Of a stretch of 64,000 bases of DNA, positions 14,362 through 49,863 are shown piece after piece (the stretch's first letter is position 1; every line of letters begins with the position of its first letter). The notes beneath the pieces are model-generated. The model was not told the DNA's origin, searched no databases, and saw only the letters and a list, made by a program, of their open reading frames with translations. The DNA comes from Myxococcota bacterium (lineage in GTDB: Bacteria; Myxococcota; UBA727; VGSZ01), in assembly GCA_044349155.1 (NCBI GenBank), contig JBIKRQ010000003.1, positions 668-64,667 on the forward strand. Reading direction: 5' to 3'. Both the position numbers and the translations under genes were made by a program.

Positions 14362-15117
14362 TCAGGCGTCGCTGCGCTTGGCTTCGCCGGCGTCGAGTGC
14401 GGTGTGCAGCGGATCGTCGGGCAGCAGGTCGCTCGGGTAGACGAAGGCGTAGTCGGCCGCACGACGAGAAAAGACCTCGAGGGCGCGGCTGACGTCGGCA
14501 CCGTTGCGCAACAGGCGGTTGTCGTCGTCGCCATCCACGAGCGTGACGCTGGCGCCGGCCTTGGCCACGGCTTCCACTTCGTCGTCGTCGATCTGCGTTT
14601 CAAGGGCCGACTTGAGCACCGCCACCTTGTAGGCAGCAGGGCCCTGCAGCACGCGCAGGTTGGGGCGCGAATCGAGCGGAATCAAGGTACCGCTCTCGTC
14701 GGCAGCGATGAGGTCGGCCGAGCTGACCGCAGCGATCGCCGCATCGCCCGCGCGCGCCGCTTTGACGACGGCATCGGCGAGACCCACCGGCGTGAGCACG
14801 CGCGCACCCTCTTGCACAACGACGAGGTCGACGTCGGCGGGCAGTGCCGACAACCCCGCGAGCAGCGCACTCTTGCGGTCGGGACCACCCGCCACCACGC
14901 GATCGATCTCGTCGAGGCCGAAGCGCTCGATCACCTCGGCGCGCACGGTGTCGACGAGGTCGGCAGGCACCACCACCACACCCGTGACCGCTTCGTCGGT
15001 GGGCAAACCACCAGCGATGGCGCGGGCGAGCAGCGGCGCGCCCAGGAGTTGATCGAGCAGCGAGCGCGACGGCAAACCAGCGCCAACGTCGGCGGTGAGC
15101 ACAATCAAACCCAACAT
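14362..15117 (-). CDS. ispD: 2-C-methyl-D-erythritol 4-phosphate cytidylyltransferase-like (IspD family)
   Basis: ATG at 15117 (MLGLIVLTADVGAGLPS...). GT-A/IspD-like layout, and it lies directly downstream of a CarD-family gene, a widely conserved neighbourhood. Confidence 0.65.
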   Translation of the reverse strand: MLGLIVLTADVGAGLPSRSLLDQLLGAPLLARAIAGGLPTDEAVTGVVVVPADLVDTVRAEVIERFGLDEIDRVVAGGPDRKSALLAGLSALPADVDLVVVQEGARVLTPVGLADAVVKAARAGDAAIAAVSSADLIAADESGTLIPLDSRPNLRVLQGPAAYKVAVLKSALETQIDDDEVEAVAKAGASVTLVDGDDDNRLLRNGADVSRALEVFSRRAADYAFVYPSDLLPDDPLHTALDAGEAKRSDA

Positions 15118-17592: not shown

Positions 17593-17691
17593 GCTTCACG
17601 TCGTCGTCGTCACTCGATGGCCGGCGATCAGTGCGTCCGCCCTTTGGACTACGCCTTCGGCGGGAGTCAGGAACCTTCTGGCCAAGGTTCC
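17593..17691 (+). repeat. conserved ~70-nt intergenic core (17593-17662) plus 8-bp hairpin (17670-17691), copy 1 of 2
   Basis: The core is ~88% identical to the reverse complement of 21398-21466. It is followed by the ggaacctt/aaggttcc hairpin and then ccttttgg. Confidence 0.75.
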
Positions 17692-17956
17692 CGACACCCT
17701 CCAGGCCTTTTGGTGGTCTGTGCGCTGCTCCCCGTGCACTTTGAGCGTCGGCGGCGAACATCTCGTCGTCGTCGATCGGGCTGGCGCCTCCTGGTTCAAA
17801 GTGCATCGGCCAGGCACCCCTCCGGCCCATTGTGGGCGTTGCCGCGTCGACGTCGTGGTCTGTGCGCTGCCGCGTCGACGGAGAGGTGGTCTGTGCGCTC
17901 CCGCGCGTCCGGCCGCGTCGTGCGTGCTCGCTGTTCGACGCGGGCGCCGGCCTGCT

Positions 17957-18810
17957 ATGTCGCGGTGGATGAACCGATGTCTTGCAGTCGTTGCACTCGT
18001 TTCTGGCCTCGCTGGGTGTGCCTCAACGGCGCCCGCTGTCGTAGCAACACCAACCGACGCCGACGTTCGTGCTGGCTGCCTGAAGGCCACGAAGGTGGAG
18101 TTCCGGGCGGGGTATCAACAACGCGCCGTCGCCCAGGGCTTCAGCGCAACCTTCGCCGAAGCCCACACAGCGTTCATGACCAGTCGCATGGAGCCCATGT
18201 TCGGGCGGCTCTGTGACTGCTCCGTCGAGAGTGTGGGCGGTTGGCAGGCCTATGCGAAGGATCCGGCGAAGGCGGCGTCGATGGCAAAGGCCTGCCACGA
18301 CCAGGTGGTTGCCAGTGCCGAGTGGCCGACGCCGACCGAGCAGGGATCGTTCATCGCCAGCTGGTCCGCCGCGCACCCGGACGAGAAGTTGGCAACGACG
18401 CTCACGCTGCCCGCGGTGTTGTCGGCTGCGGAGCTCGAGATGGCGCGGACGTCGTGCGCGATGGCCATTCGCCAGCCAAACGAAGCGAAACTCAAGAAGG
18501 CCTTGATCGACAAAGGTCAGAGTGAGGCCTTCGCGACGGCAATGGCGGCGTTTGCGATGACCAGTGCGCAACCCGCGTTCGTGTCGATGTGCGAGTGCAT
18601 CGCCACTGGCTTCGGTGGCTGGGCCACAATCATCAAACAACCGCCAGATATGACGAGCCCGGCGCGTGCGTCGAAACCTTCTCCACCGCGATCGCGGCCT
18701 CGATGCCATCGAAGGAGGCGATGCTCGCGTTTCGTACCCAGTGGATCGCCGAACATCCCGACCTGTCAGTCACGGCGACGCCAGCGCCCGCCCCCGCCCC
18801 CGCCCCGTGA
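17957..18810 (+). pseudogene. internally duplicated lipoprotein gene with an apparent frameshift near 18640-18660
   Basis: ATG at 17957 gives MSRWMNRCLAVVALVSGLAGC. The first half (CDC..GGW..AC..IASWSAAHPD) is paralleled by a second half. That second half begins in the same frame (CEC..GGW) but continues in another frame (ACVETF..RTQWIAEHPD) and ends at 18810. Confidence 0.5.
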
Positions 18811-18819
18811 GCGGCGCGA

Positions 18820-19935
18820 TCAGCGTTGTTGTGACCAGTCGGCCAACAGCTCCACCACGTTGACGTCGACGTGGGGGTCTTTGGTGCCGTCGTCGTGCAC
18901 CGCGCGCAGCTCGTGGGTCAATGCCGGGAACACGCGGAACCGTGCGTTGCCCTTCAGCACCAGGCCCTGCTTCCAGCCGTCGAGGTCGGCGAACGACACC
19001 GTCGCGTCGTGGCCCGCGTGCACGATCAACACCGGTCGCGCCTGACCCGCCAAGCGCGTCACCACGTCGCCTGCCGCACTCGATGACGACGACGCCAACA
19101 CGCCCACGCCCGCGACGTGCGCGCTGCGCGCCAACACCTCGGGCACCAGCTGCACTGTTTTGCCGTGGGCCACCACCACCACGTGACGCGCATCCACTTC
19201 GGCGCGCGCCGCAAGGGCTGCAACCGCGGCGATGACGTCGTCGGCGCGCTGTGGACTGCGCAGTTGTGTTGTGGCCACGCCGCGGCTCGCCAGGCCCCAC
19301 TGCACCTCGGTGAAGGGGCGTACCGCGCCTGCTTCTGCGGTCTGCTCGTCGACGAGCAACACCACCGCTGGCAGGTTGCGCGCCCCGTGCACTGGCACGC
19401 TGAGCACACCACCCACCACATCGATGTGACGCACCTGGTCAGCACCCACCCACAACGGCGGCACCCACGTCGACGACGAGGGCGGCACAAACGTCAGCTC
19501 GTGAACCCGCAGTCGAGGGTCGAAGGCGATGTCGACGCCCACCACTGCTGCGGCGTGGCGCAACTGCACGTGCACGCGGAGCTCGGCAGCGGTGATGTCG
19601 ACGTCGTCGATCGATGAGAGCAGCGGCCCGTACGACGACAACACCCGCTGCCACTGCGCGCGCAACGCCTCGGTCGACAACGATGCCGTGAGCGCTTCGT
19701 CGAAGTTCCAGCGCGCCTCATCGACACGGCCGTCGACGAGGGCCGACAGCAGCACGCGCGCTGCAACGATCGCATCGGCAGACGTCGCTGGTGCGGGTGC
19801 GGGTGGTGCTGGCTCAACGACGGCGGCTGCAGCCTTTGTGCGCGCCAACGCTGGCGAGGTCGCGACCGCGACGATCGTCGACGTCACCAGCGCTGCCGCT
19901 CGCCACGGCTTCAGCGGGGGCACGAGCACTGGCAC
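18820..19935 (-). CDS. secreted alpha/beta-hydrolase-fold protein with a DUF3887-like N-terminal domain (nucleophile motif not obvious)
   Basis: 371 aa with a signal-like N-terminus. Dienelactone-hydrolase-like layout, but the VVVAHGKT motif occupies the position where the GxSxG nucleophile motif would be expected. Family call is tentative. Confidence 0.5.
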   Translation of the reverse strand: MPVLVPPLKPWRAAALVTSTIVAVATSPALARTKAAAAVVEPAPPAPAPATSADAIVAARVLLSALVDGRVDEARWNFDEALTASLSTEALRAQWQRVLSSYGPLLSSIDDVDITAAELRVHVQLRHAAAVVGVDIAFDPRLRVHELTFVPPSSSTWVPPLWVGADQVRHIDVVGGVLSVPVHGARNLPAVVLLVDEQTAEAGAVRPFTEVQWGLASRGVATTQLRSPQRADDVIAAVAALAARAEVDARHVVVVAHGKTVQLVPEVLARSAHVAGVGVLASSSSSAAGDVVTRLAGQARPVLIVHAGHDATVSFADLDGWKQGLVLKGNARFRVFPALTHELRAVHDDGTKDPHVDVNVVELLADWSQQR

Positions 19936-20972
19936 AAGCAGGCCGCAGGCAACGCCTCAGGCGGTGTGTTCGCGGGGCACTGGCAAGCACACGAGCAGTT
20001 CACCATGCCCGCGTTCATCGGGATGGTGCCCGCTGGCGGCGGAGGCGGCGGCGGTGACGTCGTCGTGGTGGGCACGCCGGTGGGTGCTGCGGCCACAGGA
20101 GCGCTGCCACCGCGCACAGCACCCAGCGTGGTGAGGTACGCGAGCAGGGGCTCGAACTGGTCGCCGGGCACGCCGTGTTTGCCGCTGCCGCCCGACTGCA
20201 ACACGCCGGGGATGGTCTTGCCGGGGATCTTGTTGCCGCCGGGATGGCACTTGGCGCACTTCGTCTGGAAGTACGCGCCGCCCACGGCTGGATCGCCAGC
20301 AGGAGCTGCCGCAGCGACGACGGGAGCCGCCACCGGTGTGGTCACAGGCGTTGCTGCAGCCGCGGGTGCACCACCACGCACGGCACCGAGCGTGAGCAGG
20401 TGGGCGACGACGTTGTCGAAGTGCTCGGCGGGAACGCCGTGCTTGCCGCTGCCGCCCGACACGAGCACGCCGGGGACGGTTTTGCCGGGGATCTTGTTGC
20501 CACCGGGATGGCACTTCGCGCACTTCGTCTGGAAGTACGCCGCACCAGCAACCGCGTCGCCCGCAGCGACGGCCGCGACGACGGGGGCAGCAACAGCCAC
20601 CGGGGCCGTGACGGGGTTGGCGGCGGGCGTTGTGGGTGTGGCTGCTGCAGCGACGGGAGCACCACCGCCGAGGCGGTCTTGCAGGTGGGCCATGAGCGGG
20701 GCCCAGTCGGCTTCGGGCACGGCGTGACGGCCGGAGGACTTGCCGCGCTCGAGGAAGTCGGGGGCCATGGCGAGGTCGATGGGCGGGCCAGCGCCCTGAC
20801 CACCGTTTGGATGGCAGGCGTTGCACTTCGTTTGAAAGAAGCGCTCACCGCGCGAAGCACCCGCGGCACCTGCGCCCGCGGCAGGCGTTTGACACCCGGC
20901 AGCCACGGCCACCACGACGACAACCGACGCCACCACCACTTGCAAAGCCGACCACGACGACAACGAACGCAT
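19911..20972 (-). CDS. triheme c-type cytochrome lipoprotein with a Cys-rich C-terminal tail
   Basis: ATG at 20972 (MRSLSS...AVAAGC lipobox). Three FQTKC.xCHP CxxCH modules separated by Ala/Pro/Val linkers. Tail is NCSCACQCPANTPPEALPAACLCQCSCPR. Confidence 0.8.
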   Translation of the reverse strand: MRSLSSWSALQVVVASVVVVVAVAAGCQTPAAGAGAAGASRGERFFQTKCNACHPNGGQGAGPPIDLAMAPDFLERGKSSGRHAVPEADWAPLMAHLQDRLGGGAPVAAAATPTTPAANPVTAPVAVAAPVVAAVAAGDAVAGAAYFQTKCAKCHPGGNKIPGKTVPGVLVSGGSGKHGVPAEHFDNVVAHLLTLGAVRGGAPAAAATPVTTPVAAPVVAAAAPAGDPAVGGAYFQTKCAKCHPGGNKIPGKTIPGVLQSGGSGKHGVPGDQFEPLLAYLTTLGAVRGGSAPVAAAPTGVPTTTTSPPPPPPPAGTIPMNAGMVNCSCACQCPANTPPEALPAACLCQCSCPR

Positions 20973-21362: not shown

Positions 21363-21517
21363 CCTGGGGGCCGCCGCGCAATGCGGCCCCCAGGTCGCGC
21401 CGAAGGCGTCGTCCAAAGCGAGGACGCACTGATCGACGACCATCGCGTGACGCGACGACGTGAAGCAGTGAACAGCGAAGACGAAGACGAAGACGAAGAC
21501 GAAGACGAAGAGGACGA
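21363..21517 (-). repeat. copy 2 of the conserved core (21398-21466) with a 48-nt A-free (CTTCGT)n tract (21470-21517) and a 12-bp hairpin (21363-21394)
   Basis: Same order relative to the upstream stop codon as copy 1: stop, A-free microsatellite, core, GC hairpin, short T run. The hairpin sequence is unrelated to copy 1. Confidence 0.75.
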
Positions 21518-24091
21518 TCAGTTCCCGATCTGCTCGAGAGCCTCGATCAGGATCGCAGGCAACGCGGCCATGCTCTTGAGCTTGATCTGCTGTCCGCCCT
21601 GCTCGCTGAGCAACAGCTCCACAGTTTTGTCGTCGACGATGCCATGTGACGCGGCCAGGAGCTTCACACCGCCGTCGCCAAGGGTGCGCGCATGGCGACG
21701 CAACTCCTCGGCCGTCTCGAAGAACATGAAGTCGCTCAAGAGGAACAACAGCCGCATGTCGGCGTCGTTGCGCGTGTCGAACTGATCCCTGGCCCACGTC
21801 AACGCCGCATCGACGCGGGTGCCACCGGTGGCTTCGAGATCGAGGACGCGATCGGCGACGTCGTCGAGGTCGCTGGCGTCGGCGAAGGTTTTGATGACGT
21901 GGGTGTCGCTTTCAAACACCGCCAACGCGATCTCCTCGGGCTTCACGCGCCCGAGCAACATGACCACGGCCACCGCACACATCGCGAGCTCAGCACCGGT
22001 CATCGATCCCGAGATGTCGATGAGGACCAACAGTGCTGCCTCGCCCCGTGTCGCGTCCTGGACGAACAGATCGTCGGTGGTGATGCCGTCGAGTCCCTTG
22101 CCGCTGCCGATGACGGCGTCGAGGGTGGCGTCGAGGTCGAGGCCGTCGAGCTCATCGCCCGCCGCGTACGGTCTCGACGTGCTCTGCGGCACGAGCCCGT
22201 CGGTGCTGCCGTTGCCGGCGTTCATCCACTGAAAGGCGAGGTCGAGCAGCGCCTCTTTGAGCTGGGCCTTGATCGACGCCTTCAGCTCGGGACGCAGGGT
22301 GCTGCGATGGGTGAACCATTGCTTCAGCAGGTTGCTGCCGCCGCCGATGCCTTTGTAGCCGAGACATTGGCTGACGACGTCGTCATCGGCCTGCGCTGCG
22401 ACAGCACCAAGGTCGAGCGCCAACAACGCTGCGATCGCTTCGAGGTTCGAGGTGCCGAGTGCCGCGGCGATGCAGGGGTCGAGCATCCCGTCGGGCACGC
22501 GGACGATCTTGTCGACGAGGCGTCGGTAGCGGTCGGCGTCGTGGGAGCCACCGAGGATCATCGCGCGCAACTGCTCAAGCGCATCACCGATGCGGTCGTA
22601 GATCTCCTGCGCGTCGACACCAAGCGCATGGCCGGCGGCGATCACGCGCTCGATGTCGTGGGGGATCACCGTGTGGGCCAGGAAGTCGTCGAGCAACGGC
22701 AGGAAGTGGACGTCGTCGCGCACCAGGCACACCGCATCGGTGGCCACCTTCGTCGCCAGCGTTGCCGCCTCGTCGATGGTGGTCCGCAACAACCCGTCGG
22801 CGAGGGCGACGAGGTCCTGCACCGACGACGGCAGCGACGGTCTGCCGCGGCCTGCGGTGTCGACGTCGTCGTCGATCTGCTGCAGGTCGCGCGCCCATGC
22901 ACCATCGAGGCAAGCGACCCAGGCGGGGCAGTCCACCGACACCATCACGAGCTCGCCGACGGTGGGCTCGTGGTCGAGGCCCGCGAGCCACGCGTCGAAC
23001 AACGCCGCACACACCGGCTCACCGAAGCGTTCCTCGAGTCGTCGACCCGCAGCGATGGCCCGCGGCGCATTGTCGACGACGCTGTCGCGCAGGAGCTGCT
23101 CGGGCAGCCGCTGGAAACGGCCTTCGGCGATCAACAGCTCGGCCGCATCGTGCACGTCGGTGCAGCCCGCCAACGCCGCAGCACTCATGTCATTGACGAG
23201 CGCCACGTCGAGGGTGCCCGGCCGTGTCGTGTGGGGCCGCAGAAACGACAGCACGAGGCCCGTGGCGCGCAGATCCCGACCAGCCATGACGTCGTCGAGA
23301 TGACTGCGCAGTGGATCGGGGCTGCCTTCGCCAGCGAGGGCTCCCGCCAGCTCCCAGGGCTGCGTGGTCTCGTGCAACAGCGACGTCGTGAACCCTGCCC
23401 GACAGCCCAGCAGCACCTGTGCGGGCGTGAGCTCGCCGACAGTACCGAGCAGCTGCGCCAACGCGAAGCCGCGCACCCGCGCGACAGAGTCAGCACCCAC
23501 ACCCGCCAGCTCAGCGGGTCCGCCGAAGGTGACGACGAGCTCGGCCAACGCGCGCTCCGAACGGTCTGCGGAGCTGTAGAGCCGCTCGAACAGGTCGAAC
23601 ACATCGGCGGCACCTTCGTCGTCGGCGATGGCCGCGTCGATGGCGTCGATGTCGAGCGCGTCGATGTTGTCGAAGTCGAGTTCGAGCGACGCCATGTCGG
23701 CCAGGATCGACGACGTCGCCTCCTGCACCGAGGCAGGCTTCTGCGGCGCCGGCGACGACGACGACGCAGCACCCGTCGACGACGACGACGCCTGGCGTTG
23801 GGCCTGCGCTTTGCGCGCTTCGAGGTCGGGAAACAGCAAGCGGCGCGCGATCTCCAGCGCCACCGGCTGATCGTCGGGGACGGTGTTGACGACGGCGGCG
23901 TCGAGGTAATCGGCCGGCGTGAGCCGACGGATGCGGCAATAGCGGGCCATCAAAAAGCGCGGCACCGCGATGGTCATGCGCAGGCTCGGCTTGTGCGTCG
24001 TGCGCTTGTCGCGGCGCAGGGCATGCACCAGCGCGAGGGCAAAGGACTGCGGCGTGAAGTCGACGACGTCGTCGCCTGCGAAGCTCGTCAT
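21518..24091 (-). CDS. 857-aa protein with a C-terminal von Willebrand factor A (vWA) domain
   Basis: LLVLIDISGSMTG (DxSxS MIDAS motif) with downstream LEATGGTRVD and LLFLLSDF motifs. The ~600-aa N-terminal helical region is unassigned. Its start overlaps the MoxR stop (ATGA). Confidence 0.8.
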   Translation of the reverse strand: MTSFAGDDVVDFTPQSFALALVHALRRDKRTTHKPSLRMTIAVPRFLMARYCRIRRLTPADYLDAAVVNTVPDDQPVALEIARRLLFPDLEARKAQAQRQASSSSTGAASSSSPAPQKPASVQEATSSILADMASLELDFDNIDALDIDAIDAAIADDEGAADVFDLFERLYSSADRSERALAELVVTFGGPAELAGVGADSVARVRGFALAQLLGTVGELTPAQVLLGCRAGFTTSLLHETTQPWELAGALAGEGSPDPLRSHLDDVMAGRDLRATGLVLSFLRPHTTRPGTLDVALVNDMSAAALAGCTDVHDAAELLIAEGRFQRLPEQLLRDSVVDNAPRAIAAGRRLEERFGEPVCAALFDAWLAGLDHEPTVGELVMVSVDCPAWVACLDGAWARDLQQIDDDVDTAGRGRPSLPSSVQDLVALADGLLRTTIDEAATLATKVATDAVCLVRDDVHFLPLLDDFLAHTVIPHDIERVIAAGHALGVDAQEIYDRIGDALEQLRAMILGGSHDADRYRRLVDKIVRVPDGMLDPCIAAALGTSNLEAIAALLALDLGAVAAQADDDVVSQCLGYKGIGGGSNLLKQWFTHRSTLRPELKASIKAQLKEALLDLAFQWMNAGNGSTDGLVPQSTSRPYAAGDELDGLDLDATLDAVIGSGKGLDGITTDDLFVQDATRGEAALLVLIDISGSMTGAELAMCAVAVVMLLGRVKPEEIALAVFESDTHVIKTFADASDLDDVADRVLDLEATGGTRVDAALTWARDQFDTRNDADMRLLFLLSDFMFFETAEELRRHARTLGDGGVKLLAASHGIVDDKTVELLLSEQGGQQIKLKSMAALPAILIEALEQIGN

Positions 24092-25047
24092 GGCGTTGTG
24101 CCCGCGGCCTTCTTGTCTTTCTTGTCGCCGTCCTTTTTCGCGAGCGGATCGCCGACACCGAGTACTTTGTGCAGCAGCGAGTCGAGGTATTTCTCGAGGT
24201 CACGGCCGGGCTTGAGGCGCACCGCTTCGCTGAGCACGTTGCGCGCGGCGTCGGCGATCACGCGGTTGTCGAGCTTCACGCCAAGGCGCTTCGCGCGTTC
24301 ACCTGCGAGGCGGGCCACGCCGATCGAGCTGCGGATCGAGGCCGGTGCTTCGACGGCGGGGTCGTCTCTGGTGTGGTGGATGAGCTCGAGCACGAGTTCG
24401 AGCTGGCCCGGCGTGAGGTCGTACTCGCGCGACTTGCTCTCGACGATGCGGGTCTCGATCGAGCGGCTCGGATAGCCGAGCTGCACCCAGACCTTGATGC
24501 GATCTTTGATCGCGCTGGGCAGGCGACGCGTGCCGCGGTTCTCGGTCGGGTTCATCGCCGCGATCAAGTAGAAGTCGTCGGACACGCGGTGCCACGTGCG
24601 CAGTGCGGGGATGTAGAGCTTTCGCTCCTCAAGCGCGTCGAGCAGCGTGTTGAGCACGTACTCGTCGCCGCGGTTCAGCTCGTTGGCGAGAAACACACCA
24701 CCCGACAACGCCGACACGGTGAACGGCCCGGGCACAAAGGCCTCGGGCGAAAACCCGTACTTGAACACGAGGGTCGGATCGAAGCTGCCGATCAGATTCG
24801 ACGGCCGCACGAGGTCAGAGAACGTGACCCAGTCAAACGGCTTGCCGAGGTCGGTGGCGAACTTCCGACACAGCGCCGTCTTTCCCGAACCAACCGGGCC
24901 GATGAGCCCCGCATAGAGCCCCGCGTTGTGGGCGTCGGTGAGGGTGTCGTAGGCGTCCTGGTACTGCCCGTCGAGGATCACCTCGTCGTGGCTCGTCAGG
25001 TCGTCGATGCGGGACTTTGCGAGCAGCGCCAACACATCGGTCGTCAT
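24088..25047 (-). CDS. MoxR-class AAA+ ATPase (AAA_5-like)
   Basis: Walker A GPVGSGKT. Walker B/MoxR signature VFLANELNRGDEYVLNTLLDALEERK. Also AAMNPTE and LPSAIKDRI motifs. Confidence 0.85.
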   Translation of the reverse strand: MTTDVLALLAKSRIDDLTSHDEVILDGQYQDAYDTLTDAHNAGLYAGLIGPVGSGKTALCRKFATDLGKPFDWVTFSDLVRPSNLIGSFDPTLVFKYGFSPEAFVPGPFTVSALSGGVFLANELNRGDEYVLNTLLDALEERKLYIPALRTWHRVSDDFYLIAAMNPTENRGTRRLPSAIKDRIKVWVQLGYPSRSIETRIVESKSREYDLTPGQLELVLELIHHTRDDPAVEAPASIRSSIGVARLAGERAKRLGVKLDNRVIADAARNVLSEAVRLKPGRDLEKYLDSLLHKVLGVGDPLAKKDGDKKDKKAAGTTP

Positions 25048-25619
25048 TGTTCATCTCCAGAGGCAGTGACGGGGGCATCGACGGCGGCATCAACAGCAGC
25101 AGCAGCGTCGACGAAGAACCGTTCGGTGCGGGTGGGCTCGATGGTTTCCGGCAGCGTGAGCTTGATGGCAGCGCAGGCGGCCTTCACCGTTTCGAATTCG
25201 GTTTTGTCGACGACGCGGCGCGTGCCGAGGTTCAAGCCCGCGAGGATCTGCTTGCCGTAGTACGTGGCCTGCAGCTCGGTGAGGTCGAAGCCCATGCCGC
25301 CCTTTCGGCTCTTGCGCACGATCTTCACGAGGGTGAGCTGCTTCAACCGCGTCGCCGCCAACAACTGGTTGAGCCACTTCCAACCGGTCTCTTTTTTGAA
25401 GAGATCGCTGCGCGAGAGATCTTCGAGGAGCTTCTGCTTCGCGAGCGCGAGCAACGCCTTCTGCACACGCGCCTGAATCAACTGGGGGTCGAGCTCGGCA
25501 TCGAGCTCGCCAAGGTGCGACAGCAGCTCAGCACTCGCGATGAACGCTGGCCGCGGCTTTTCTTGAAACGTCTGCAGCTCGGCCACCGCCGACGCCACGG
25601 CTTCTTGCCAGGTGCTCAT
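25044..25619 (-). CDS. hypothetical 191-aa protein (operon member, no recognised domain)
   Basis: ORF with 4-nt ATGA overlaps to both neighbours. Codon usage is typical for the window. Confidence 0.6.
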   Translation of the reverse strand: MSTWQEAVASAVAELQTFQEKPRPAFIASAELLSHLGELDAELDPQLIQARVQKALLALAKQKLLEDLSRSDLFKKETGWKWLNQLLAATRLKQLTLVKIVRKSRKGGMGFDLTELQATYYGKQILAGLNLGTRRVVDKTEFETVKAACAAIKLTLPETIEPTRTERFFVDAAAAVDAAVDAPVTASGDEQ

Positions 25620-27613
25620 CGCGGCCCTTCCTGCATGGAGCTCTTGCCCTTCTTGACGATGCGGATGTGGTGGCCGGCCACGTCACCGACGTCGTGGTGC
25701 GTGATCAAGACCATCTGCTTGCTGCTGTCGAGCGCTGCGACCCGACCAAGCAGGGCGGTGCGGCGGTGCTCGTCGAGACCATAGGTCGGCTCGTCGAGGA
25801 GCACGAACGACACGGCCCCGACCCGCCGCGCGACGGCGAGCTTGAACGACAACCCCAGCAGCACCTTGTGGCCACCGCCTTGAAAGAGGTGCGCTGGCAC
25901 CTCGACGCCGATGTCGTGGGGCGTGACGTTGATGACGTAGCGCGCAGGGTCGATCGTGAGCGACTTGAATTCCTCGTCGGGGGCGCTGAGTTGCCGGTGC
26001 AGGGCAAACACGTCGGTGGCGAGCTCGGCGGCGGCCTTGTCACGCAAGGTCACCTGCAGCTCCTTGAAAGCCGCAGCCAGCTTGCGCAGGCGGCCCGCCA
26101 ACGCACTCTGTTCGCGCAGGCGCTCGACGGTGCCCTCGACCGAGGCAAGTTCGCGTGCGGCCTCCTGTCGACGTTCCTTGAGGGCCTGCAGCGCCGACGT
26201 TGCCTCGTCGCGACGTCCCTGAATGGCGCTCAGCACCGTCTGGGCGCGGACGCGCTCGTCGCGCAAGCCATCGCGGGTGTCACCAAGGGCTTCTACGACG
26301 TGGTCGACGAGGGCGCTGTCGGCCACGTCGTCAGGCACCTTCCACGTCGTGCGGGCAGCACGCGCCGCGTCGGCCCAGGCCTGCTGCGGCGCGGCCACCG
26401 CCTGGACCGCCGCGGCATGATCCTTGTGGGCGGCCAGTGCTGCGTCACACCGCGTAAGCTGTGCCGTGGCGTCGTCGACGCGGGCGGTCTCATGAGCGAT
26501 GACCTGCATGACGTCGTCGAGCGAAGCCTGCGCCGTGGTCAGCGTCGTCTGCCACGCGGCAAGTTCTGCCATCGCCTTGTCGTGGTCGATCGCCTGACCG
26601 CAGGTTTCGCACGTCGTCGAGTTCGGGTCGGCGTGGGCCGCGCGCCGCCCGATGCGCCCTTCGAGGTCGCCAATCGTGCGCAACAGCGTGGTGCGCTCAT
26701 CGTGGCGCGCCGCAATGGTGGCAGCGCCCGCCGCAACACTGGCGCGCGCTTGCTCCTGCCGCGTCTGCAGCACCTCGACGTCGTCGACGACAACGCTCTG
26801 CAGGCGCTGCACCTCAGCGACCACAACGGCGAGGGCATCGGCAGCCGCTTCGAGGGCGTCGACCTGTTCCACCGACGCCGCCAACGCCGCCAACGCCGTC
26901 GACGTGCGCTCGATGGTCTGCAGCACTGCCGCTTCCTCGGCGTCGATCCCCGCCAGCGTGAGCCGCAATGCGTTGTCGCGGTCGTCGCCGGCTTTGACGT
27001 CGTCACGCAGCCGGGCGAGCGCTGCTTCGAGCACCGGCAGGGTGCTCGCTTCCTTCTCGGCTTCAAGCGCCAGCGCCCGCGTCTCGTCGGCAGCAAGGAC
27101 CGAGGCTGTCACGCCCAGCACCGTGTCGAGCTGTGGTGCACCTTCGAGCATCGCGGCGATCTCGCCCTGCTTCACGTGCACAGCGACGTCGAAGAGGCGG
27201 CGGCTGAGGCCGAGGACCTCGGTGAGCTTGAGCGCGAGCGCTTCTTCTTTGTCCTGGAAATCGGTGCTCAAGACATAGCGCTCGCCGTCGTCGTCGATGA
27301 CCTTGAGCGTGAAGTGGCCGATGACCGTCGTCTTTGAGCGTGGCGGCTTCTCGTGCAGCCGTTGCAGCACGTAGCGCTTGCCGTCTTTGCCGACGAAGCG
27401 GAGCTCGACGCCCGTCTCCTTTGCACCGGGATGCATGAGCGTGTGGATCTGGCGGATCGCACCGACGCGCCCAAACAGCGCGTACTCGATCGCGTAGAGC
27501 ACGGTGCTTTTGCCGGCGTTGTTTTCGCCGTCGATGAAGTTGATGCCCTGGCGCAGGTCGATCTTCTCGTCGACGTAGCGCCGGAAATTCCGCAGCCAGA
27601 TCCGCTCGATCAT
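25616..27613 (-). CDS. Rad50/SbcC/SMC-like ABC ATPase with a central CxxC hook
   Basis: The N-terminus IERIWLRNFRRY..IDGENNAGKSTVLYAIEYALFG carries the Walker A. A long Ala/Glu/Leu-rich coiled coil has CETC at residues 335-338 of 665 (nt 26600-26611). The C-terminus VSFVLLDEPTYGLDE carries the Walker B/D-loop. Confidence 0.8.
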   Translation of the reverse strand: MIERIWLRNFRRYVDEKIDLRQGINFIDGENNAGKSTVLYAIEYALFGRVGAIRQIHTLMHPGAKETGVELRFVGKDGKRYVLQRLHEKPPRSKTTVIGHFTLKVIDDDGERYVLSTDFQDKEEALALKLTEVLGLSRRLFDVAVHVKQGEIAAMLEGAPQLDTVLGVTASVLAADETRALALEAEKEASTLPVLEAALARLRDDVKAGDDRDNALRLTLAGIDAEEAAVLQTIERTSTALAALAASVEQVDALEAAADALAVVVAEVQRLQSVVVDDVEVLQTRQEQARASVAAGAATIAARHDERTTLLRTIGDLEGRIGRRAAHADPNSTTCETCGQAIDHDKAMAELAAWQTTLTTAQASLDDVMQVIAHETARVDDATAQLTRCDAALAAHKDHAAAVQAVAAPQQAWADAARAARTTWKVPDDVADSALVDHVVEALGDTRDGLRDERVRAQTVLSAIQGRRDEATSALQALKERRQEAARELASVEGTVERLREQSALAGRLRKLAAAFKELQVTLRDKAAAELATDVFALHRQLSAPDEEFKSLTIDPARYVINVTPHDIGVEVPAHLFQGGGHKVLLGLSFKLAVARRVGAVSFVLLDEPTYGLDEHRRTALLGRVAALDSSKQMVLITHHDVGDVAGHHIRIVKKGKSSMQEGPR

Positions 27614-27912
27614 CGCGCCACGTCCACGGCATCGGCAGACGCGTCAGCGGCGTCAGCGGCGTCGACGGGTGCTGACACGCCCAACAGCTCAAAGCAGCGG
27701 GCGCGCAGTTTGTCTCTGGCTTCGCCGTTGAGATTGCCGACCTTCGTGATGTTGTCGTCGTCGTCGAGCAGGAACTGCGTGAACGAGAACAAGCGCGCGG
27801 CGATCTCGGCCAGCCCGCTGTCGCCGGCCAGTGCCTCTGTGCGCGCCAACAACGACGCAACGGTGGACCCGGAGGCAGCAGGCTGCGAAGCAGTGGTGTC
27901 GTCGTCGCTCAT
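27610..27912 (-). CDS. small acidic hypothetical protein (100 aa), first gene of the five-gene operon
   Basis: ORF whose stop overlaps the start of the Rad50-like gene (ATGA). No recognisable domain. Confidence 0.5.
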   Translation of the reverse strand: MSDDDTTASQPAASGSTVASLLARTEALAGDSGLAEIAARLFSFTQFLLDDDDNITKVGNLNGEARDKLRARCFELLGVSAPVDAADAADASADAVDVAR

Positions 27913-27974: not shown

Positions 27975-29445
27975 TCACGGTGTCGTTGCGACCGCGGCCA
28001 CATCTCGGCCTGTGGCCCGCGCCAGGCGCACCACCGCGAGGCGTGCGTCGACGTGGGCGTTCACGGCTTCAACGCGCGCACGGAGCAATTCCGTTTCGGC
28101 ATCGGCGAGTTCGACGAGGGTGGCGCGGCCGGCCTGGTACAAATCAGCGCGCGCGCGGTAGCTGGCCTCGGCAGCCGTGCGGCCCTCTGTCGTCGTCACG
28201 AGCGCCACGTTCGCGTCGCGCACCGCAGCCAACGCTGTGGCGATCTCCATGCGAATGCCATCGAGCAGCGCGTTTTTCTGCGCGAGCAACTGCTGCCCAC
28301 GCGCATGCACCGTCGACGACGCGGCCATCGCCGCCGGAATGTCGCTGGGCGTCCAGCTCAACAACGCACCGGCATCCCAGGTCTGGTGGTACGTGTCGAC
28401 CGCGGGCACAAAGCGCGGGTGCGGGTTGCCGCCGATGGTGGTGGCCGTGACGTCGAGCCGCGGCGCCATCGCCGACCACGACGACCGCTCCTGCGCTTCG
28501 AGGGCAGCAATCTGCGCGGTGAGCACGCGGGGCTCGACGCGTTGTTCCAGGGCTTCGTCGACGAGCTGCTGCTCGGACTTCGCCAACAACGCCGACAGGT
28601 CCGGGGCACTCTTGAACACATCTTCGCCCACGGCGATGCGTTGCGTGTTCGCTGCGTGCACCAACGTGCGCAGCTGCGCATCGGCCACTTCAGCACCACT
28701 TTTGGCGCGCTGCTCGAACAAGCGTGACGACGACGCGGCGGCCTGCACGCGCAACACATCCGCCGACGACGCCGCCCCCACTTCGAAGGCGCGCTGCACA
28801 TCGCCGATGCGGGTCTCGGCGGTTTTGTGCGCTTTCTCTGCGACCAACGCCAACGCGTGCAACCGCGCCGCACTCAAGAACGCGACGCGGGCATCGGTGG
28901 CGGCTTTGATGCGGCCCACGTCGACGTCGAGTTCGGCGGCGCGTTGCGTGTCGCTCGCCGCACCAAACGACTTTCCACACGTAGTCAGAGATGGGCACGC
29001 TGATGCCCGCGCGCACGCTGTAGACGTCGAGATACACGGGAAAGCTGAAGTCCGGGGCCGCGATCAGGGTGCGATCTCCCAACGGCCCCGCAGCTCCCTG
29101 GACGACGACAAAGCGCGCCGCATCACCACCACCAAACGGTGGCGCTTCAATGTCGGACAAGCGCGTGTAGCCCGCCGACGCGGAAATGCGCGGGACGAAC
29201 GCGGCGGTGGCCGACAACCGGCCCGCTTCAGCGACGTGCAACGCCTCCTCACGCGCCTGCACATCCCAGCTGGTGTCGGCAGCCATGACGGCGACGCGGT
29301 CTTCGGTGAGGCCATCGCTGACCACGAGGCCGGCCAACGCACGGTCGAGTTCGGCCGCTTCGTCGACGACGGTGGCGGCGTCGACGCGTTGTTGCGCAGG
29401 TGTTTGCAGGGCCACGCAGGCCGAAAGCAGAAGTGCTGAATGCAT
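27975..29445 (-). pseudogene. NodT/TolC-family outer membrane factor lipoprotein, split by an apparent 1-nt frameshift near 28960-28985
   Basis: The N-terminal part (29445 downwards; MHSALLLSAC lipobox; ..ISVPISDYVW) continues in another frame as KSFGAASDTQRAAELDVDVGRIKAATD... through to 27975. It is the last gene of the marR-emrA-emrB-like operon. Confidence 0.65.
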
Positions 29446-29489
29446 GGTGTGCTCGACGACAAAGGGACAAAAAGAGAAGAGGGCTGCGC

Positions 29490-31097
29490 TCAGTGGGCAG
29501 CGGTGCGGTCGACGGTGGGGTCGGCGCGCTTGAGGAAAAACGGCACGATCAGCGAGAAGGCAAACAACACCGCGAGCAGCGAAAAGCCGTCGGAGAAGGC
29601 CATCGACAACCCCTGCAACTGCACGCGTCCGGCGAGTTGTGCTGTGGCTGCGGCGAGGGGATCGGCGACCTGCCCCGTCATGCCGCCCTTGATCGCCGCG
29701 AGTTGCGCGACCGCTGCTTCGTGCGTCGTGGAGACCGACTCAGCGAGGTACGCCGCGTGCTGCTTGGATTGATCTGCCAGGCGTGTCGACATCCACGCCG
29801 TGCCAATGCTGCCGCCGAGTTCGCGCGTGGCGTTGAACAAGCCCGAAGCACTGCCGCGTTGGTCGGGCCGCACTCCCGACATCGCGACGACGGTGAGGGG
29901 CACGAAGCAGAACGACAAACCGATGGCGCGCACGAAGATGGGCATGGTCATCGTGTCGATGTCGGCCAGCGGCGTGAGCCCGGCGTTCAACACCGTCGAC
30001 AGCGTGACCATCGCGAGGCCAAACACCAGGAACTTGCGTGGGTCGACCCTCGCCAACGTGGCGCCGACGATGGGCAGCAGCAGCAGTTGGATCCAGCTGC
30101 CGTGCAAAAAGATCGAGCCGATGTCGATCGCCTTCAGGTGCATCACCGTGCCCGAGAACAGCGAGTACAAAAAGCTGCCCGCAAACAGCACGGTGCCGAT
30201 CAGAAAGTTCAACAGCGTGGCCGCCGCGTAACCGGGTGCGGCGAACACGCGGAAGTCGACGACGGGGCTGTCGACCTCGAGTTCGTGCACCACAAACGTG
30301 ATCAGCGACGTCACCGCCACGATCGCCACCAGCGTGATCTCGGTGCTGTCGAACCAGCCTTCGCGGTTGCCTTCTTCGAGCACGAACTGCAGCGAGATCA
30401 TGCCCACAGCCAACAGGCCGATGCCTTTGACGTCGATGGGGCGCAGGTCGGGCTCGAAGCCTTCTTCTTTGATTTGGGTCCACACCAAAAACGCGGCGAA
30501 CGAACCGATGGGCACGTTGACGAGAAACATCCAGTGCCAGCTGAGGTGCTCGATCAACACGCCGCCGATGGTGGGGCCGAGCAGCGGGCCGGTGATGGCG
30601 CCGAGGCCAAACAACGCACCGGCGATGCCTGCTTGTTCACGAGGCCAGCGCGCAAACAACGTGGCTTGTGCGGTGGGGATGATGGCGCCGCCGCCGATGC
30701 CCTGCAGGATGCGAAACGCCACCAACGACGGCAGGTTCCACGAGATGCCGCACAGCACACTCGCGAACGTGAACAGCACGATCGACGCCGTGAAGTAGCG
30801 ACGAATGCCGAAGCGCCGCTGCAGAAATCCCGACATCGGAATGACGGTGATGTTGGCCATCGCGTAGCCCGTCGACACCCACGCAATCTGGTCCAGCGGC
30901 GTGCCGAAGCTTGCGCGGATGTTGGTGAGGCCGACGTTGACGATGCTGATGTCGAGCACGCTCATGAGCGCTGCGGCCATGGCGGCGACCGTGATCGCCG
31001 CCTTCGAGCCGGTGACCACACCGGTGTTGCCCGCCAACGACGACGACGACGATGACGACGGCGGTCGTGCTGGTGCTGCGGAAGGAGAAGTGCTCAT
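29490..31097 (-). CDS. MFS drug:H+ antiporter, DHA2/EmrB-QacA family (14-TMS type)
   Basis: 535 aa. LDISIVNVGLTNIRASFG and WVSTGYAMANITVIPMSGFL motifs, with many TM segments. Confidence 0.85.
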   Translation of the reverse strand: MSTSPSAAPARPPSSSSSSSLAGNTGVVTGSKAAITVAAMAAALMSVLDISIVNVGLTNIRASFGTPLDQIAWVSTGYAMANITVIPMSGFLQRRFGIRRYFTASIVLFTFASVLCGISWNLPSLVAFRILQGIGGGAIIPTAQATLFARWPREQAGIAGALFGLGAITGPLLGPTIGGVLIEHLSWHWMFLVNVPIGSFAAFLVWTQIKEEGFEPDLRPIDVKGIGLLAVGMISLQFVLEEGNREGWFDSTEITLVAIVAVTSLITFVVHELEVDSPVVDFRVFAAPGYAAATLLNFLIGTVLFAGSFLYSLFSGTVMHLKAIDIGSIFLHGSWIQLLLLPIVGATLARVDPRKFLVFGLAMVTLSTVLNAGLTPLADIDTMTMPIFVRAIGLSFCFVPLTVVAMSGVRPDQRGSASGLFNATRELGGSIGTAWMSTRLADQSKQHAAYLAESVSTTHEAAVAQLAAIKGGMTGQVADPLAAATAQLAGRVQLQGLSMAFSDGFSLLAVLFAFSLIVPFFLKRADPTVDRTAAH

Positions 31098-31100
31098 GGC

Positions 31101-32306
31101 CTACTCCGTCACGACGGTGACTTCGGTGCTCATGCCCGGGCGCAGCAGGACCGTGGGCGGTGCATCAAAGCGCAGCACCACCGGCACACGCTGCACCACC
31201 TTGACGAAGTTGCCCGAGGCATTGTCGGGCGGCAGCAACGAGAAGCGGCTGCCCGTACCACCCGAGATGGCGTCGACGTGGGCTTCGAGCTTCACGCCTT
31301 CGAAGGTGTCGACGACGATGGTGGCCTTCTGGCCCTCTTTCATGTGGGCGATCTGGTCTTCTTTGAAGTTGGCCGTGACCCACACATCGGTGAGCGCCAC
31401 GATCGCACACAGCGTGCGCTCGGGGCCCACCATCATGCCGGGCTCGACGTTCTTTCGGGCCACCACACCGTCGACGGGAGCGCGCACCGTCGCGTACGAC
31501 AACGCCAACCCTGCCAACTTGCGCGAGGCCTCGGCCTGCATCAAGCGCGCTTCGGCCACGCCCACTGCAGCACGTGCCGCCTCGAGCTGCTCGGGCACGG
31601 TCTCTGCCTGAGCCACACGACCACGCGCGAGTTCCAGGCCGCCTTCGCTGCCCGTGATCGACGCCGCCGTGCTCGCCATTTTGGCCTCGGCCTGCTCCCT
31701 GGAGGCCTTCGCCTGGTCGAACGCCGACTGGCGCGCATCCAGGTCGGCCTGCGACACCGCGCGGCGCTCAAACAGCCCCTGGCTGCGCGAGAGCTCGATG
31801 GCCGCCAACGACAACCGCGTCTCGGCCGCCGACACGTCCGCCTTCGACTGGTTCAACGTGGCGCGGCTGGCATCCACCGAGCTCGAGGCCTGGTTCAAGC
31901 CACCGCGGGCCTGCACCAGCGACGCCTTCGCCGTCTTCGTCGTCACCGCCAACTGCGCGTCGGCCGACGCCTTCTGTGCGCGCGCTTGCGCGAGGTCGGC
32001 TTCGGCAAGCTCAAGGCGTGCGGCGAGGTCGGCGGGGTCGAGCTCGACGAGGATGTCGCCGGCCTTCACCGGCTGGCCATCCTTCACCAACACGCGCGCC
32101 ACCTGGCCCGCGACACGGGCAGCCACCGGCGCGACGTGCGCTTCGACAAACGCGTCGTCGGTGGACTCTTTGCCCTTGTTGAGCAGGCGCACGACGCCAA
32201 AGGCACCACCCGCCACCACCACCAAAGCCAACGCCACCAGCGGCGCCTTCTTCTTCTTCGGTGCAACAGCTGGAGCAGCAGAAGCGGGAGCGGCGGGGTC
32301 GGCCAT
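31101..32306 (-). CDS. HlyD/EmrA-family membrane fusion protein
   Basis: 401 aa with an N-terminal TM. Motifs: VAARVAGQVARVLVKDGQPVKAGDILVELD lipoyl-like, long coiled coil, APVDGVVARKNVEPG and FVKVVQRVPV. Confidence 0.85.
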   Translation of the reverse strand: MADPAAPASAAPAVAPKKKKAPLVALALVVVAGGAFGVVRLLNKGKESTDDAFVEAHVAPVAARVAGQVARVLVKDGQPVKAGDILVELDPADLAARLELAEADLAQARAQKASADAQLAVTTKTAKASLVQARGGLNQASSSVDASRATLNQSKADVSAAETRLSLAAIELSRSQGLFERRAVSQADLDARQSAFDQAKASREQAEAKMASTAASITGSEGGLELARGRVAQAETVPEQLEAARAAVGVAEARLMQAEASRKLAGLALSYATVRAPVDGVVARKNVEPGMMVGPERTLCAIVALTDVWVTANFKEDQIAHMKEGQKATIVVDTFEGVKLEAHVDAISGGTGSRFSLLPPDNASGNFVKVVQRVPVVLRFDAPPTVLLRPGMSTEVTVVTE

Positions 32307-32405
32307 CGGTGAATCCTTGTGGGCGTGTGTCGCGTATGAAGTCGTAAGGCGCCAAACCTTCAGCGGGCTTCGACTTCGAACCGCTTGAAAAAGCGCAGAA
32401 AAATG

Positions 32406-32984
32406 TCAGTCGCTCTCGCCGCCGGTGTCGGTATCGGCAGCGGTGAGGCGCGCTGAAGCAGGTGGTTGTGGCAGTTCAAAGGCATCGAAGCCGTCGAACA
32501 CCTTCTGCAGCAGGTGCTCGAACTGCTCGCGTTCGGTTGGGCTGAAGTCACGCAACACGCCAGCGATGCGGGCGAAGTGGTCGGGCATCATCGCTTCGAG
32601 GAAGCGGCGACCGGTGAGCGACAGGCGCACGAGCACCGATCGCTTGTCGTCAGGGTCCGGCTCGCGGGCGACCATGGCATCGCGCTCAAGCGTGTCGATC
32701 AAACCCGTGATGGTGGCGCGTGTGACGTTGAGAACGTCGGCGAGGGCCGCGGGGGTCAGGCCATGGCCCGCGGCCGTGTGCAGATTGACGAGCACCAAAA
32801 AGCGCGCCTGCGAGATGCCATGGCGGGCGAAGTGGGCATCGGCCGACTTGTCGGCACGCGAGATCACGCGCCGCAGCAGCAGATACACGCGCAGCGAGTC
32901 GGCATCGAACGTGGGGTAGTGCGAAGCGGCCCTGGCGATCGCAGGAAGGTCGTGGGCCAGCGGGTGGGCGCGTTGCTCGGGCAT
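32406..32984 (-). CDS. MarR-family transcriptional regulator
   Basis: ORF 32406..33080. ATG at 32984 is preferred because it leaves a 125-nt divergent intergenic region. Winged-helix core GISQARFLVLVNL...LADVLNVTRATITGLIDTLERDAMVARE. Confidence 0.8.
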   Translation of the reverse strand: MPEQRAHPLAHDLPAIARAASHYPTFDADSLRVYLLLRRVISRADKSADAHFARHGISQARFLVLVNLHTAAGHGLTPAALADVLNVTRATITGLIDTLERDAMVAREPDPDDKRSVLVRLSLTGRRFLEAMMPDHFARIAGVLRDFSPTEREQFEHLLQKVFDGFDAFELPQPPASARLTAADTDTGGESD

Positions 32985-33109
32985 GGCGGCCGATCTAGTT
33001 AGGGGCCAAACCATGTGCAAGCGCTCGTCGAGATCTGGCGCTGCAATGGTGCGGACATGTGTCCCGTCGCGGTGGTTCACAGCACTGCAGCGGGTGTTGC
33101 TAGAGACGC

Positions 33110-40960: not shown

Positions 40961-41003
40961 TCGGCGGACTCCTGGACTCTCACTCACCGGGCACAAGGGT
41001 GGC

Positions 41004-41387
41004 GAAAGGAGCAGGCTCACACGGTGCTTCTGATTCGATGACGACGTGGCAGGTCGGTAAGTCTCGGACAGGGATGGCGCAGATCACCATCATTCATGGG
41101 GCATCGGATGCCTCACCGGCTCGCCGGGGGAGAGCACTACGGAGTGCTTCCCTCCACGGCGGTCGGCGTCGTGGGCTCAGCGAGGGAAGCACTCCGTAGT
41201 GCTCTCCCCCGAAGCGAGCCAAGAACAGGCATCCTTGCGGAGGATGTCAGGCGAAGTTCCAGATCGACGCAACATCGATCGTGTGCGCGAGGCACAACGG
41301 CTGAGCCGCAAACCATCCCTGACCGATTCCTACCCAAGCTGTTCGGACGTCATCGGTATTGAAGCGTCGTGTGAGCGTGCTCCTTTC
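41004..41387 (-). ncRNA. candidate retron msr/msd non-coding RNA locus
   Basis: A 19/20-nt inverted repeat (41004-41023 against 41368-41387) brackets the region. Inside is a perfect 29-bp stem (41126-41154 / 41182-41210, 27-nt loop), extended by 41118-41124/41214-41220 and 41106-41112/41228-41234. It lies immediately upstream of the RT on the same strand. Confidence 0.75.
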
Positions 41388-41428
41388 TCATCCATCTGCG
41401 AACCGGCTCCTCACATGAGCATGGTTCG

Positions 41429-49860: not shown

Positions 49861-49863
49861 CGG

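Follow-up and report, generated by a model that had tools for sequence, protein, structure and literature searches.

We examined what a Rad50-like ATPase with a zinc hook may be doing in one operon with a MoxR-vWA motor. The operon has five genes, here called A to E in their order on the minus strand, and occupies positions 21,518 to 27,912 of a 64,000-nucleotide stretch of DNA from a Myxococcota bacterium (contig JBIKRQ010000003.1, assembly GCA_044349155.1); this whole stretch is referred to below as the window. An initial annotation, made from the letters of the window, had described a small acidic protein, a Rad50-like hook ATPase, a protein of no recognised kind, a MoxR AAA+ ATPase and a large vWA protein, and had known of no described system that joins these parts. 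In every full-length related locus examined, all five genes were found in an identical order. We tentatively favour the view that they make up a horizontally transferred module, in which a MoxR-vWA remodeller (D-E) with a mechanical output would be dedicated to a Rad50-like DNA clamp or sensor (A-B-C). The coordinates of all features are collected in Table 1.

Five consecutive open reading frames, each beginning with ATG, were present in the reading-frame list of the window exactly as described, and the domain calls made for them were confirmed using Pfam. The window has a GC content of 67% and genes of Gram-negative type; the GC content at third codon positions was 0.80-0.87 for all five reading frames, like that of the other genuine genes of the window. 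The ATGA overlaps reported by the initial annotation were read at all four junctions. Across the related loci the overlaps at A/B, B/C and D/E (4 nt, occasionally 1 or 8 nt) were kept in nearly all cases, whereas the C/D junction was looser and varied between a 4-nt overlap and a 139-nt gap, which suggests two sub-complexes, A-B-C and D-E. The overlaps had been taken to argue for stoichiometric co-expression; in the literal sense this is ruled out if D and E assemble 6:1, as they may, like NorQD (PMC9976466). A sigma-70 scan gave no promoter-like site and is uninformative at such a GC content.

The five-gene arrangement is not chance, because the gene set and its order recur in all full-length loci. 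The initial annotation had made its proposal depend on whether the SMC-like gene is found together with the MoxR-vWA pair; it was so strictly, as every locus long enough held all five genes. The hosts on the Myxococcota side were Sandaracinus amylolyticus (CP070225), other Sandaracinaceae, Kofleriaceae, Polyangiaceae and Myxococcales metagenome-assembled genomes (MAGs); further hosts were one Desulfobacteraceae MAG, two Promethearchaeota (Asgard) MAGs and, in the Planctomycetota, a Gemmatales and another MAG, both on truncated contigs. The cassette is rare. At least about 10 cassette loci were found among representatives of 185,579 species, the matches of the genome scan being dominated by archaeal Rad50; in a set of 1.84 billion representatives the C family amounted to 74 clusters (50% identity); and a scan of 241 million metagenome records for the C tail motif gave 12 contigs, mostly short. 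Searches of plasmid, phage and IMG/VR collections with E gave nothing or generic vWA domains, and no copy of the cassette. One of the Asgard loci (L008) had a GC content of 32-39% throughout, the cassette included, and ordinary neighbours, and we therefore regard the cassette as a resident of that genome, not as contamination by binning. Some variation in layout was seen: E was split in L085 (13489-16046), its N-terminal part being a gene of 409 aa and its vWA part one of 443 aa; E of the Asgard locus L008 carried a single in-frame TAA (14426-14428) within the acidic linker; and the D and E homologues of L006 (7570-10081) were about 2.5 kb apart.

From its motifs, B is predicted to be a catalytically competent ATPase of the Rad50/SbcC/LmuB radiation that falls outside every curated family; it was placed there because the motifs and hook are invariant and because Rad50 and LmuB are its best matches. 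Invariance was judged on an alignment of 20 homologues, out of 61 present in a 5.8-billion-protein index. The family-wide consensus, all of it invariant, comprised a Walker A GxNNAGK, the Q-loop Gln, QGGGH, LLDEPT, a D-loop and an H-loop, and the CETCG motif was invariant as well, so that the Rad50-like ATPase with a CxxC hook proposed at the outset is real. The hook lies mid-way in an insert of about 340 residues rich in Ala, Glu, Arg and Leu, with some 150-180 poorly conserved residues on each side, and the insert is a putative coiled coil. B matched Pfam AAA_23 (2.7e-16) and SMC_N (4.6e-14). Its best NCBIfam match was archaeal Rad50 (1.5e-31), at 109.3 bits for PRK01156 against an equivalog cut-off of 847; SbcC (TIGR00618) scored 35.6 bits against a cut-off of 478.5, and matches to arcadin-4 (weak, 2.2e-16) and to an archaea-specific SMC-related protein were also listed by NCBIfam. 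When a profile of 20 family members was compared with the PDB, the closest solved relatives were archaeal Rad50 heads (4.9e-33). The best PADLOC match was LmuB (PDLC03859, 1.9e-24, 84.8 bits, residues 2-650), no curated threshold being available for this model and the Rad50 models of NCBIfam scoring higher; the JetC model of PADLOC covered just the N-terminal P-loop region (residues 3-49). The absence of an Mre11/SbcD-like nuclease also held, since no Metallophos domain was found by Pfam in A, C, D or E, nor in the cassette of any related locus. L002, alone among the loci, has a Metallophos gene (801 aa), which is unrelated and on the opposite strand.

The MoxR-vWA pair likewise proved real, with an AAA_5 domain in D and, in E, a vWA domain with an intact MIDAS (an adhesion site that depends on a metal ion). 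D matched Pfam AAA_5 at 6.6e-19 (68.7 bits, cut-off 22) and AAA_3 at 9e-14. It matched GvpN (TIGR02640) at 1e-16, the 61.3 bits being below the cut-off of 266.8, NorQ in the PDB at 2.6e-6, and bpMoxR of Pfam at 18.4 bits, under the threshold of 27; its PADLOC matches were marginal and unrelated (dCTPase, 0.017; IetA, 0.027), and a CbbQ_C domain was not detected by Pfam in D-E. The motifs GPVGSGKT, AAMNP, RGTRRLP and SIRSSI, which correspond to Walker A, sensor 1, Arg finger and sensor 2, were conserved. The Walker B of AAA+ proteins normally carries an Asp that coordinates Mg; in all 10 aligned D homologues it read hhhhN-E, with Asn in place of that Asp and the catalytic Glu kept. D was 58-75% identical across phyla, bacteria versus Asgard archaea included, and 60-75% to the Asgard copies, compared with 28-53% for the other four proteins. 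E has an overall isoelectric point (pI) of 4.5, and its vWA domain was matched by Pfam VWA_2 (1.4e-8). The AlphaFold2 (AF2) model of E had a mean predicted local distance difference test score (pLDDT) of 77.5, with the segment 105-161 below 50. Foldseek with the full-length model returned vWA matches and nothing else; the top ones were the NorD vWA in 2026 NorQD cryo-electron microscopy complexes (9qh6, 9qhd, 9qhe; 2e-5), which spanned 259-279 columns as against about 185 for classical vWA domains, and the MDN1 MIDAS domain was also among them. Residues 625-684 of E, modelled with low confidence as a hairpin-like segment before the vWA core, are consistent with a pore finger. For the first ~620 residues of E, neither Pfam, NCBIfam, PADLOC and PHROGs nor the PDB sequences gave a match.

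That region and the proteins A and C make up three orphan families; these were the parts left unassigned by the initial annotation, and they are still without relatives after database searches. A had no match in Pfam, PADLOC, NCBIfam, PHROGs or a PDB profile search, yet F42, L48, D50, T56, R72 and E75 were invariant in 12 loci. C, too, was without a match in all of these, and its AF2 model gave nothing below E = 0.3 in the PDB (entries to April 2026) or BFVD using Foldseek. The C model (mean pLDDT 78.8, residues 1-155 being at about 88 and the tail under 50) was helical, with one beta-hairpin (residues 101-112) after a long helix, and the invariant residues of the tail were P157, P162, T163, T165, E166 and F169. 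In one low-GC metagenomic cassette of archaeal type (L087, 1078-1959) C was fused to an N-terminal BRCT domain through a Ser/Thr/Asn-rich linker; D and E homologues directly followed this gene, and the cassette was otherwise normal. The BRCT domain on C points to a DNA-end or DNA-damage context. Two weak C-like matches (P0153, P0155) were set aside for their unrelated or unclear gene contexts.

In the module that we favour, B would probably dimerise via its zinc hook and/or its ATP-engaged heads and bind or clamp DNA, as its family suggests, and A and C would be its dedicated small subunits, C being helical, with a hairpin "wing" and a flexible, conserved acidic-aromatic tail. A hexamer of D would take up one E adaptor through the vWA domain and finger, in the 6:1 manner of NorQD and CbbQO. 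The N-terminal domains of E would set client specificity, its MIDAS would hold the client by an acidic residue, and the pull on that residue would come from ATP hydrolysis. The client is most likely A-B-C itself, or whatever A-B-C holds on DNA, because the characterised CbbQ/NorQ-type pairs serve a client whose gene adjoins theirs and no other gene is conserved here; candidate MIDAS ligands are the invariant Glu166 in the tail of C and Asp50 in A. The output would be mechanical and not nucleolytic, serving to open, unload, reset or activate a DNA-bound Rad50-like complex. The intact ATPase and hook of B, its affinity to Rad50 and the BRCT-C variant together suggest a DNA substrate, probably ends or unusual structures, and the most likely biological role would seem to be the surveillance of unusual or foreign DNA, with accessory DNA maintenance as the other contender. 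A further step, that the cassette represents an unrecognised class of the SMC/Rad50 family whose obligate partner is a MIDAS-bearing AAA+ motor acting mechanically on the DNA-bound complex, seems to us possible but rather doubtful. If true, it would bring the "grab a Glu and pull" manner of Rea1/midasin to a DNA-associated assembly in bacteria and Asgard archaea, and would include three new protein families (A, C and the N-terminal part of E).

Several points weigh against this proposal. Gene content, motifs, fold similarities and strict co-occurrence are shown, whereas DNA binding by B, the A-B-C complex, the contact of D-E with it, the 6:1 assembly, the identity of the client and the biological role are what we infer. 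The client could instead be a protein of the host or of an invader that is encoded elsewhere. The roles given to A, C and the N-terminal region of E are guesses, because these have no detectable relatives, and D may behave unusually as an ATPase because an invariant Asn stands for its Walker B Asp. A B-C fusion (P0103) was set aside, since the ends of both proteins were missing and it may be an assembly artefact.

The neighbourhoods of the cassette were compared between loci. Flanking genes were unrelated from one locus to the next and no other gene was conserved beside the cassette; transposases were close by in three loci, one locus was near Ada/AlkA/MGMT genes, and others were beside metabolic genes. 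Among 86 flanking proteins, PADLOC matches (E <= 1e-8) were confined to a SNF2 helicase, an AbiEi-like protein, a kinase and one or two others, which fell in 2 of 8 neighbourhoods and in neither made up a complete system. As regards defence islands, near which the initial annotation had proposed to look for enrichment, the flanking genes gave no consistent signal. Because the flanks vary, transposases are nearby and defence-like neighbours are few, the cassette behaves as an accessory, horizontally moving unit without a clear defence-island signature.

One rival account is that the cassette is an immune system. It would then be a Lamassu-like abortive-infection defence, in which B, with C as a "middle component", senses the DNA ends or hairpins of phage or plasmid, and in which harm to the cell or the invader comes from D-E, or from a cryptic activity in the 460-residue helical domain of E, as the effector. 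LmuB, the best PADLOC match of B, covers it nearly end to end, and the size, coiled coil and CxxCG hook of B fit the description of LmuB, a protein of ~650 aa with a short coiled coil; B nevertheless retains the Walker B Glu that in LmuB is generally Gln (PMC10586767), and PADLOC gave no LmuA or LmuC match in any of the five proteins (A, C and E gave nothing at E <= 0.1). The distribution is patchy, crosses domains and resembles horizontal gene transfer, with variable flanks and the transposases near three loci, a type XIII retron lies 11.6 kb off in the window, and MoxR-vWA modules occur in proposed conflict systems (PMC7159879, PMC12839542). Set against this are the scarcity of defence-like neighbours, put at about 3-4 of 86, the lack of the cassette in the plasmid, phage and IMG/VR collections, and the identity of D across phyla, which is unusually high for a component of an arms race. 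The initial annotation had seen no effector, and no effector domain was recognised by Pfam, PADLOC, NCBIfam or Foldseek. A defence role is plausible by analogy, with at most weak support from gene context, and in this Lamassu-like form we hold it to be unlikely. Accessory DNA repair or chromosome maintenance, with B as a nuclease-free Rad50-like clamp at breaks or stalled forks that the motor loads, unloads or recycles, appears unlikely to the same degree. It would agree with the Rad50 proteins being the closest solved and curated relatives of B, with the ATPase motifs of B all being intact, which implies turnover, and with the frequent housekeeping flanks, including the Ada/AlkA/MGMT genes near one locus and the metabolic genes beside others. 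BRCT domains are typical of DNA-damage-response proteins, and the one fused to C would fit as well. The extreme rarity and phylogenetic scatter of the cassette would, however, be unexpected for a core repair function, and no nuclease, helicase or recombinase partner, nor any conserved linkage to repair genes, was seen.

Two other accounts were considered. Many MoxR/vWA-type pairs, ChlI/ChlD and CobS/CobT among them, mature metal centres, and D-E might similarly be an assembly or metal-insertion chaperone that matures or exchanges the zinc hook of B, or that builds A-B-C once and takes no part in its working cycle. A precedent is NorQD, a MoxR/vWA pair that matures the FeB metal centre (PMC9976466), and NorD is the best structural match of E. 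The invariant CxxCG hook is the sole visible metal site of the operon, but no metal-binding motif besides the MIDAS was seen in D or E. To our knowledge the hooks of Rad50 and LmuB elsewhere manage without such a chaperone, and this account, which is purely analogical, strikes us as very improbable. Slightly less probable still is one unrelated to DNA, by which B would be a coiled-coil scaffold or an ATPase associated with the cytoskeleton, comparable to the Rad50-like arcadin-4, that is remodelled by the MoxR-vWA pair. The weak arcadin-4 match (2.2e-16) and the archaeal SMC-related match of B are in its favour, and the hosts are mostly of large-genome lineages with complex cells (Myxococcota, Planctomycetota, Asgard archaea); the Rad50 matches of B are far stronger than that to arcadin-4, however, the BRCT fusion points to DNA or to phospho-protein signalling, and no cytoskeletal gene was linked in any examined locus.

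Other features of the window and of related loci were noted. A MarR-HlyD-MFS-OEP efflux operon (27975-33080, minus strand) ends 62 nt upstream of A, and read-through from it into A-E is possible in the window; a functional link was rejected, as this linkage was present in no other locus. A perfect tandem repeat, (CGAAGA)x6, at 21476-21511 begins 7 nt after the stop codon of E, and a cytochrome c gene follows the operon after an intergenic region of about 500 nt, an association that did not recur. The type XIII retron of the window is complete by PADLOC models (39515-52611, minus strand). A 709-aa protein at 9501-11630 (minus strand) carries PSCyt2 (DUF1549) and PSD2 (DUF1585), two families first defined in Planctomycetes. 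In the Asgard locus L008 the 778-aa product of a gene about 1 kb downstream of the cassette (17630-19966) contains four lamin-tail domains (LTD, 2e-31).

Table 1. Coordinates in the window of the genes, motifs and domains of the five-gene operon, and of the retron genes.
Feature	Position	Strand	Remarks
Gene A	27610-27912	minus	100 aa, acidic, pI 4.06
A conserved core F-x-F-x-Q-F-L-L-D-D-D-E-N-L-T...R..L.E	27688-27789	minus	~50 aa, helical
Gene B	25616-27613	minus	665 aa, Rad50/SbcC/LmuB-like ABC ATPase
B Walker A GENNAGKS	27506-27529	minus	G29, N31, N32, G34, K35 invariant
B zinc hook CETCG	26597-26611	minus	C335, C338, G339 invariant in 20 homologues
B C-terminal head motifs, signature to Walker B	25790-25882	minus	family alignment
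B signature-like QGGG(H)	25871-25882	minus	G579-G581 invariant
B Walker B VLLDE	25790-25804	minus	D607 and catalytic Glu608 invariant
B H-loop LITHH	25694-25708	minus	H639 invariant
Gene C	25044-25619	minus	191 aa, helical, no family match
C tail motif P-E-x-I-E-P-T-x-T-E-x-F-F	25113-25151	minus	in disordered C-terminal tail
Gene D	24088-25047	minus	319 aa, MoxR-class AAA+ ATPase
D Walker A GPVGSGKT	24877-24900	minus	conserved
D atypical Walker B VFLANE	24679-24696	minus	N122-E123 (24679-24684) invariant, 10 homologues
D sensor-1/Arg-finger block AAMNPTENRGTRRLPSAIKDRI	24496-24561	minus	
Gene E	21518-24091	minus	857 aa, NorD/CbbO-type adaptor with vWA
E basic helical N-terminal domain, aa 1-100	23792-24091	minus	pI 10.1; AF2
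E acidic disordered linker, aa 105-161	23609-23779	minus	AF2, pLDDT <50
E all-alpha domain, aa 165-623	22223-23599	minus	AF2
E pre-vWA finger-like segment, aa 625-684	22040-22219	minus	low-confidence, hairpin-like, AF2
E vWA domain, aa 685-857	21521-22039	minus	Pfam and AF2
E MIDAS DISGS	22004-22018	minus	D692, S694, S696 invariant in both alignments
E MIDAS T758 (ATGGT)	21818-21832	minus	invariant in one alignment, >=90% in the other
E MIDAS D787 (LSDF)	21728-21745	minus	invariant in one alignment, >=90% in the other
RT_XIII	39515-41020	minus	PADLOC 8e-142
SWIM_XIII	41429-43270	minus	PADLOC 4e-142
HEAT-ARM_XIII	43267-49860	minus	PADLOC 1e-300; WD40 and HEAT repeats in Pfam
Second HEAT-ARM/WGR protein	49864-52611	minus	2e-190

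The known partners of Rad50/SMC-like proteins are nucleases (Mre11, SbcD, JetD) or enzymatic effectors (LmuA), and the known work of MoxR-vWA pairs is the maturation or reactivation of enzymes. If the proposal is true, the sensing or clamping of DNA would here be coupled in a new way to the mechanical remodelling of protein, and a MoxR-vWA pair would have a tractable, co-encoded client, client identity being the main gap for most MoxR proteins. Should the cassette instead be an immune system, it would add a type that is effector-less or acts mechanically; should it be a repair factor, it would define a nuclease-free Rad50 pathway common to bacteria and Asgard archaea. The cassette is compact (6.4 kb), self-contained and present in the complete genome of Sandaracinus amylolyticus, which makes these readings directly testable.

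Among known systems, NorQD and CbbQO are the nearest to D-E. In NorD a disordered linker joins an N-terminal domain to a vWA domain that bears a MIDAS and a finger inserting into the pore, and the N-domains of NorD and CbbO are target-specific and mutually unrelated; characterised pairs of the CbbQ/NorQ class form a 6:1 motor-adaptor complex that acts on a client encoded alongside, the adaptor MIDAS gripping an acidic client residue and the N-domain supplying specificity (PMC9976466). D is similarly a single-module AAA_5 MoxR protein, E runs from an N-domain through a disordered linker to a C-terminal vWA domain whose MIDAS is complete, and the two genes are adjacent, translationally coupled and next to a putative client. 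The partner here is a Rad50-like ATPase, however, whereas it is a metabolic enzyme there; the N-terminal ~620 residues of E are unrelated to known proteins, the Walker B of D reads N-E and not D-E, the GvpN score is far under the equivalog cut-off, and CbbQ_C is lacking. Midasin/Rea1 shares the logic of a MIDAS domain that holds a client Glu while an AAA+ ring pulls; its AAA_5 modules gave the best PDB sequence scores for D, and the MDN1 MIDAS matched E, but it is a single giant polypeptide of six AAA modules that works on pre-ribosomes. Kinship of D to midasin was rejected, since the score of 2.7e-22 adds up weak matches to six AAA modules that are individually insignificant.

The Mre11-Rad50 and SbcCD complexes contain the nearest solved relatives of B and share its head motifs and its putative antiparallel coiled coil with a CxxC hook; B is much shorter, has the signature QGGGH, and scores far under the equivalog cut-offs, and membership was rejected on these scores and for want of a nuclease. 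Lamassu (LmuA-LmuB-LmuC; ABC-3C; DdmABC) resembles the cassette in the size, short coiled coils and CxxCG of B and in having a small protein beside it. It differs in gene order, in the Walker B Glu, which B keeps (D607-E608, invariant), and in that a MoxR-vWA pair is no described component of it; membership was rejected for the Walker B Glu and for the lack of LmuC and of LmuA, an effector with a variable enzymatic N-domain and a conserved docking domain, though C may be a functional analogue of LmuC. Wadjet/MksBEFG, in which a JetC/MukB-like SMC protein works with kleisin, KITE and JetD/MksG partners, was rejected as PADLOC gave no JetA, JetB or JetD matches. The VMAP ternary and MoxR-vWA-beta-propeller conflict systems of Kaur et al. 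2020, for which no SMC, Rad50 or SbcC partners are mentioned (PMC7159879), have in common with the cassette the MoxR and vWA core, a multi-gene layout and an occurrence mainly in lineages with complex cell biology. The vWA protein here is without peptidase or effector, however, and there is no iSTAND/VMAP or beta-propeller partner; membership was rejected because bpMoxR was under threshold and Pfam found neither an effector nor a third-component domain. The set was thus assigned by Pfam, PADLOC and NCBIfam to no known housekeeping complex or defence system. Full-text searches of the literature gave no account of this MoxR/vWA and Rad50/SMC neighbourhood, in agreement with the initial annotation; an earlier mention in the ABC-ATPase classification of Krishnan et al. 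2020 is possible. The module is apparently undescribed, and in it two known kinds of machine are apparently combined in a new way.

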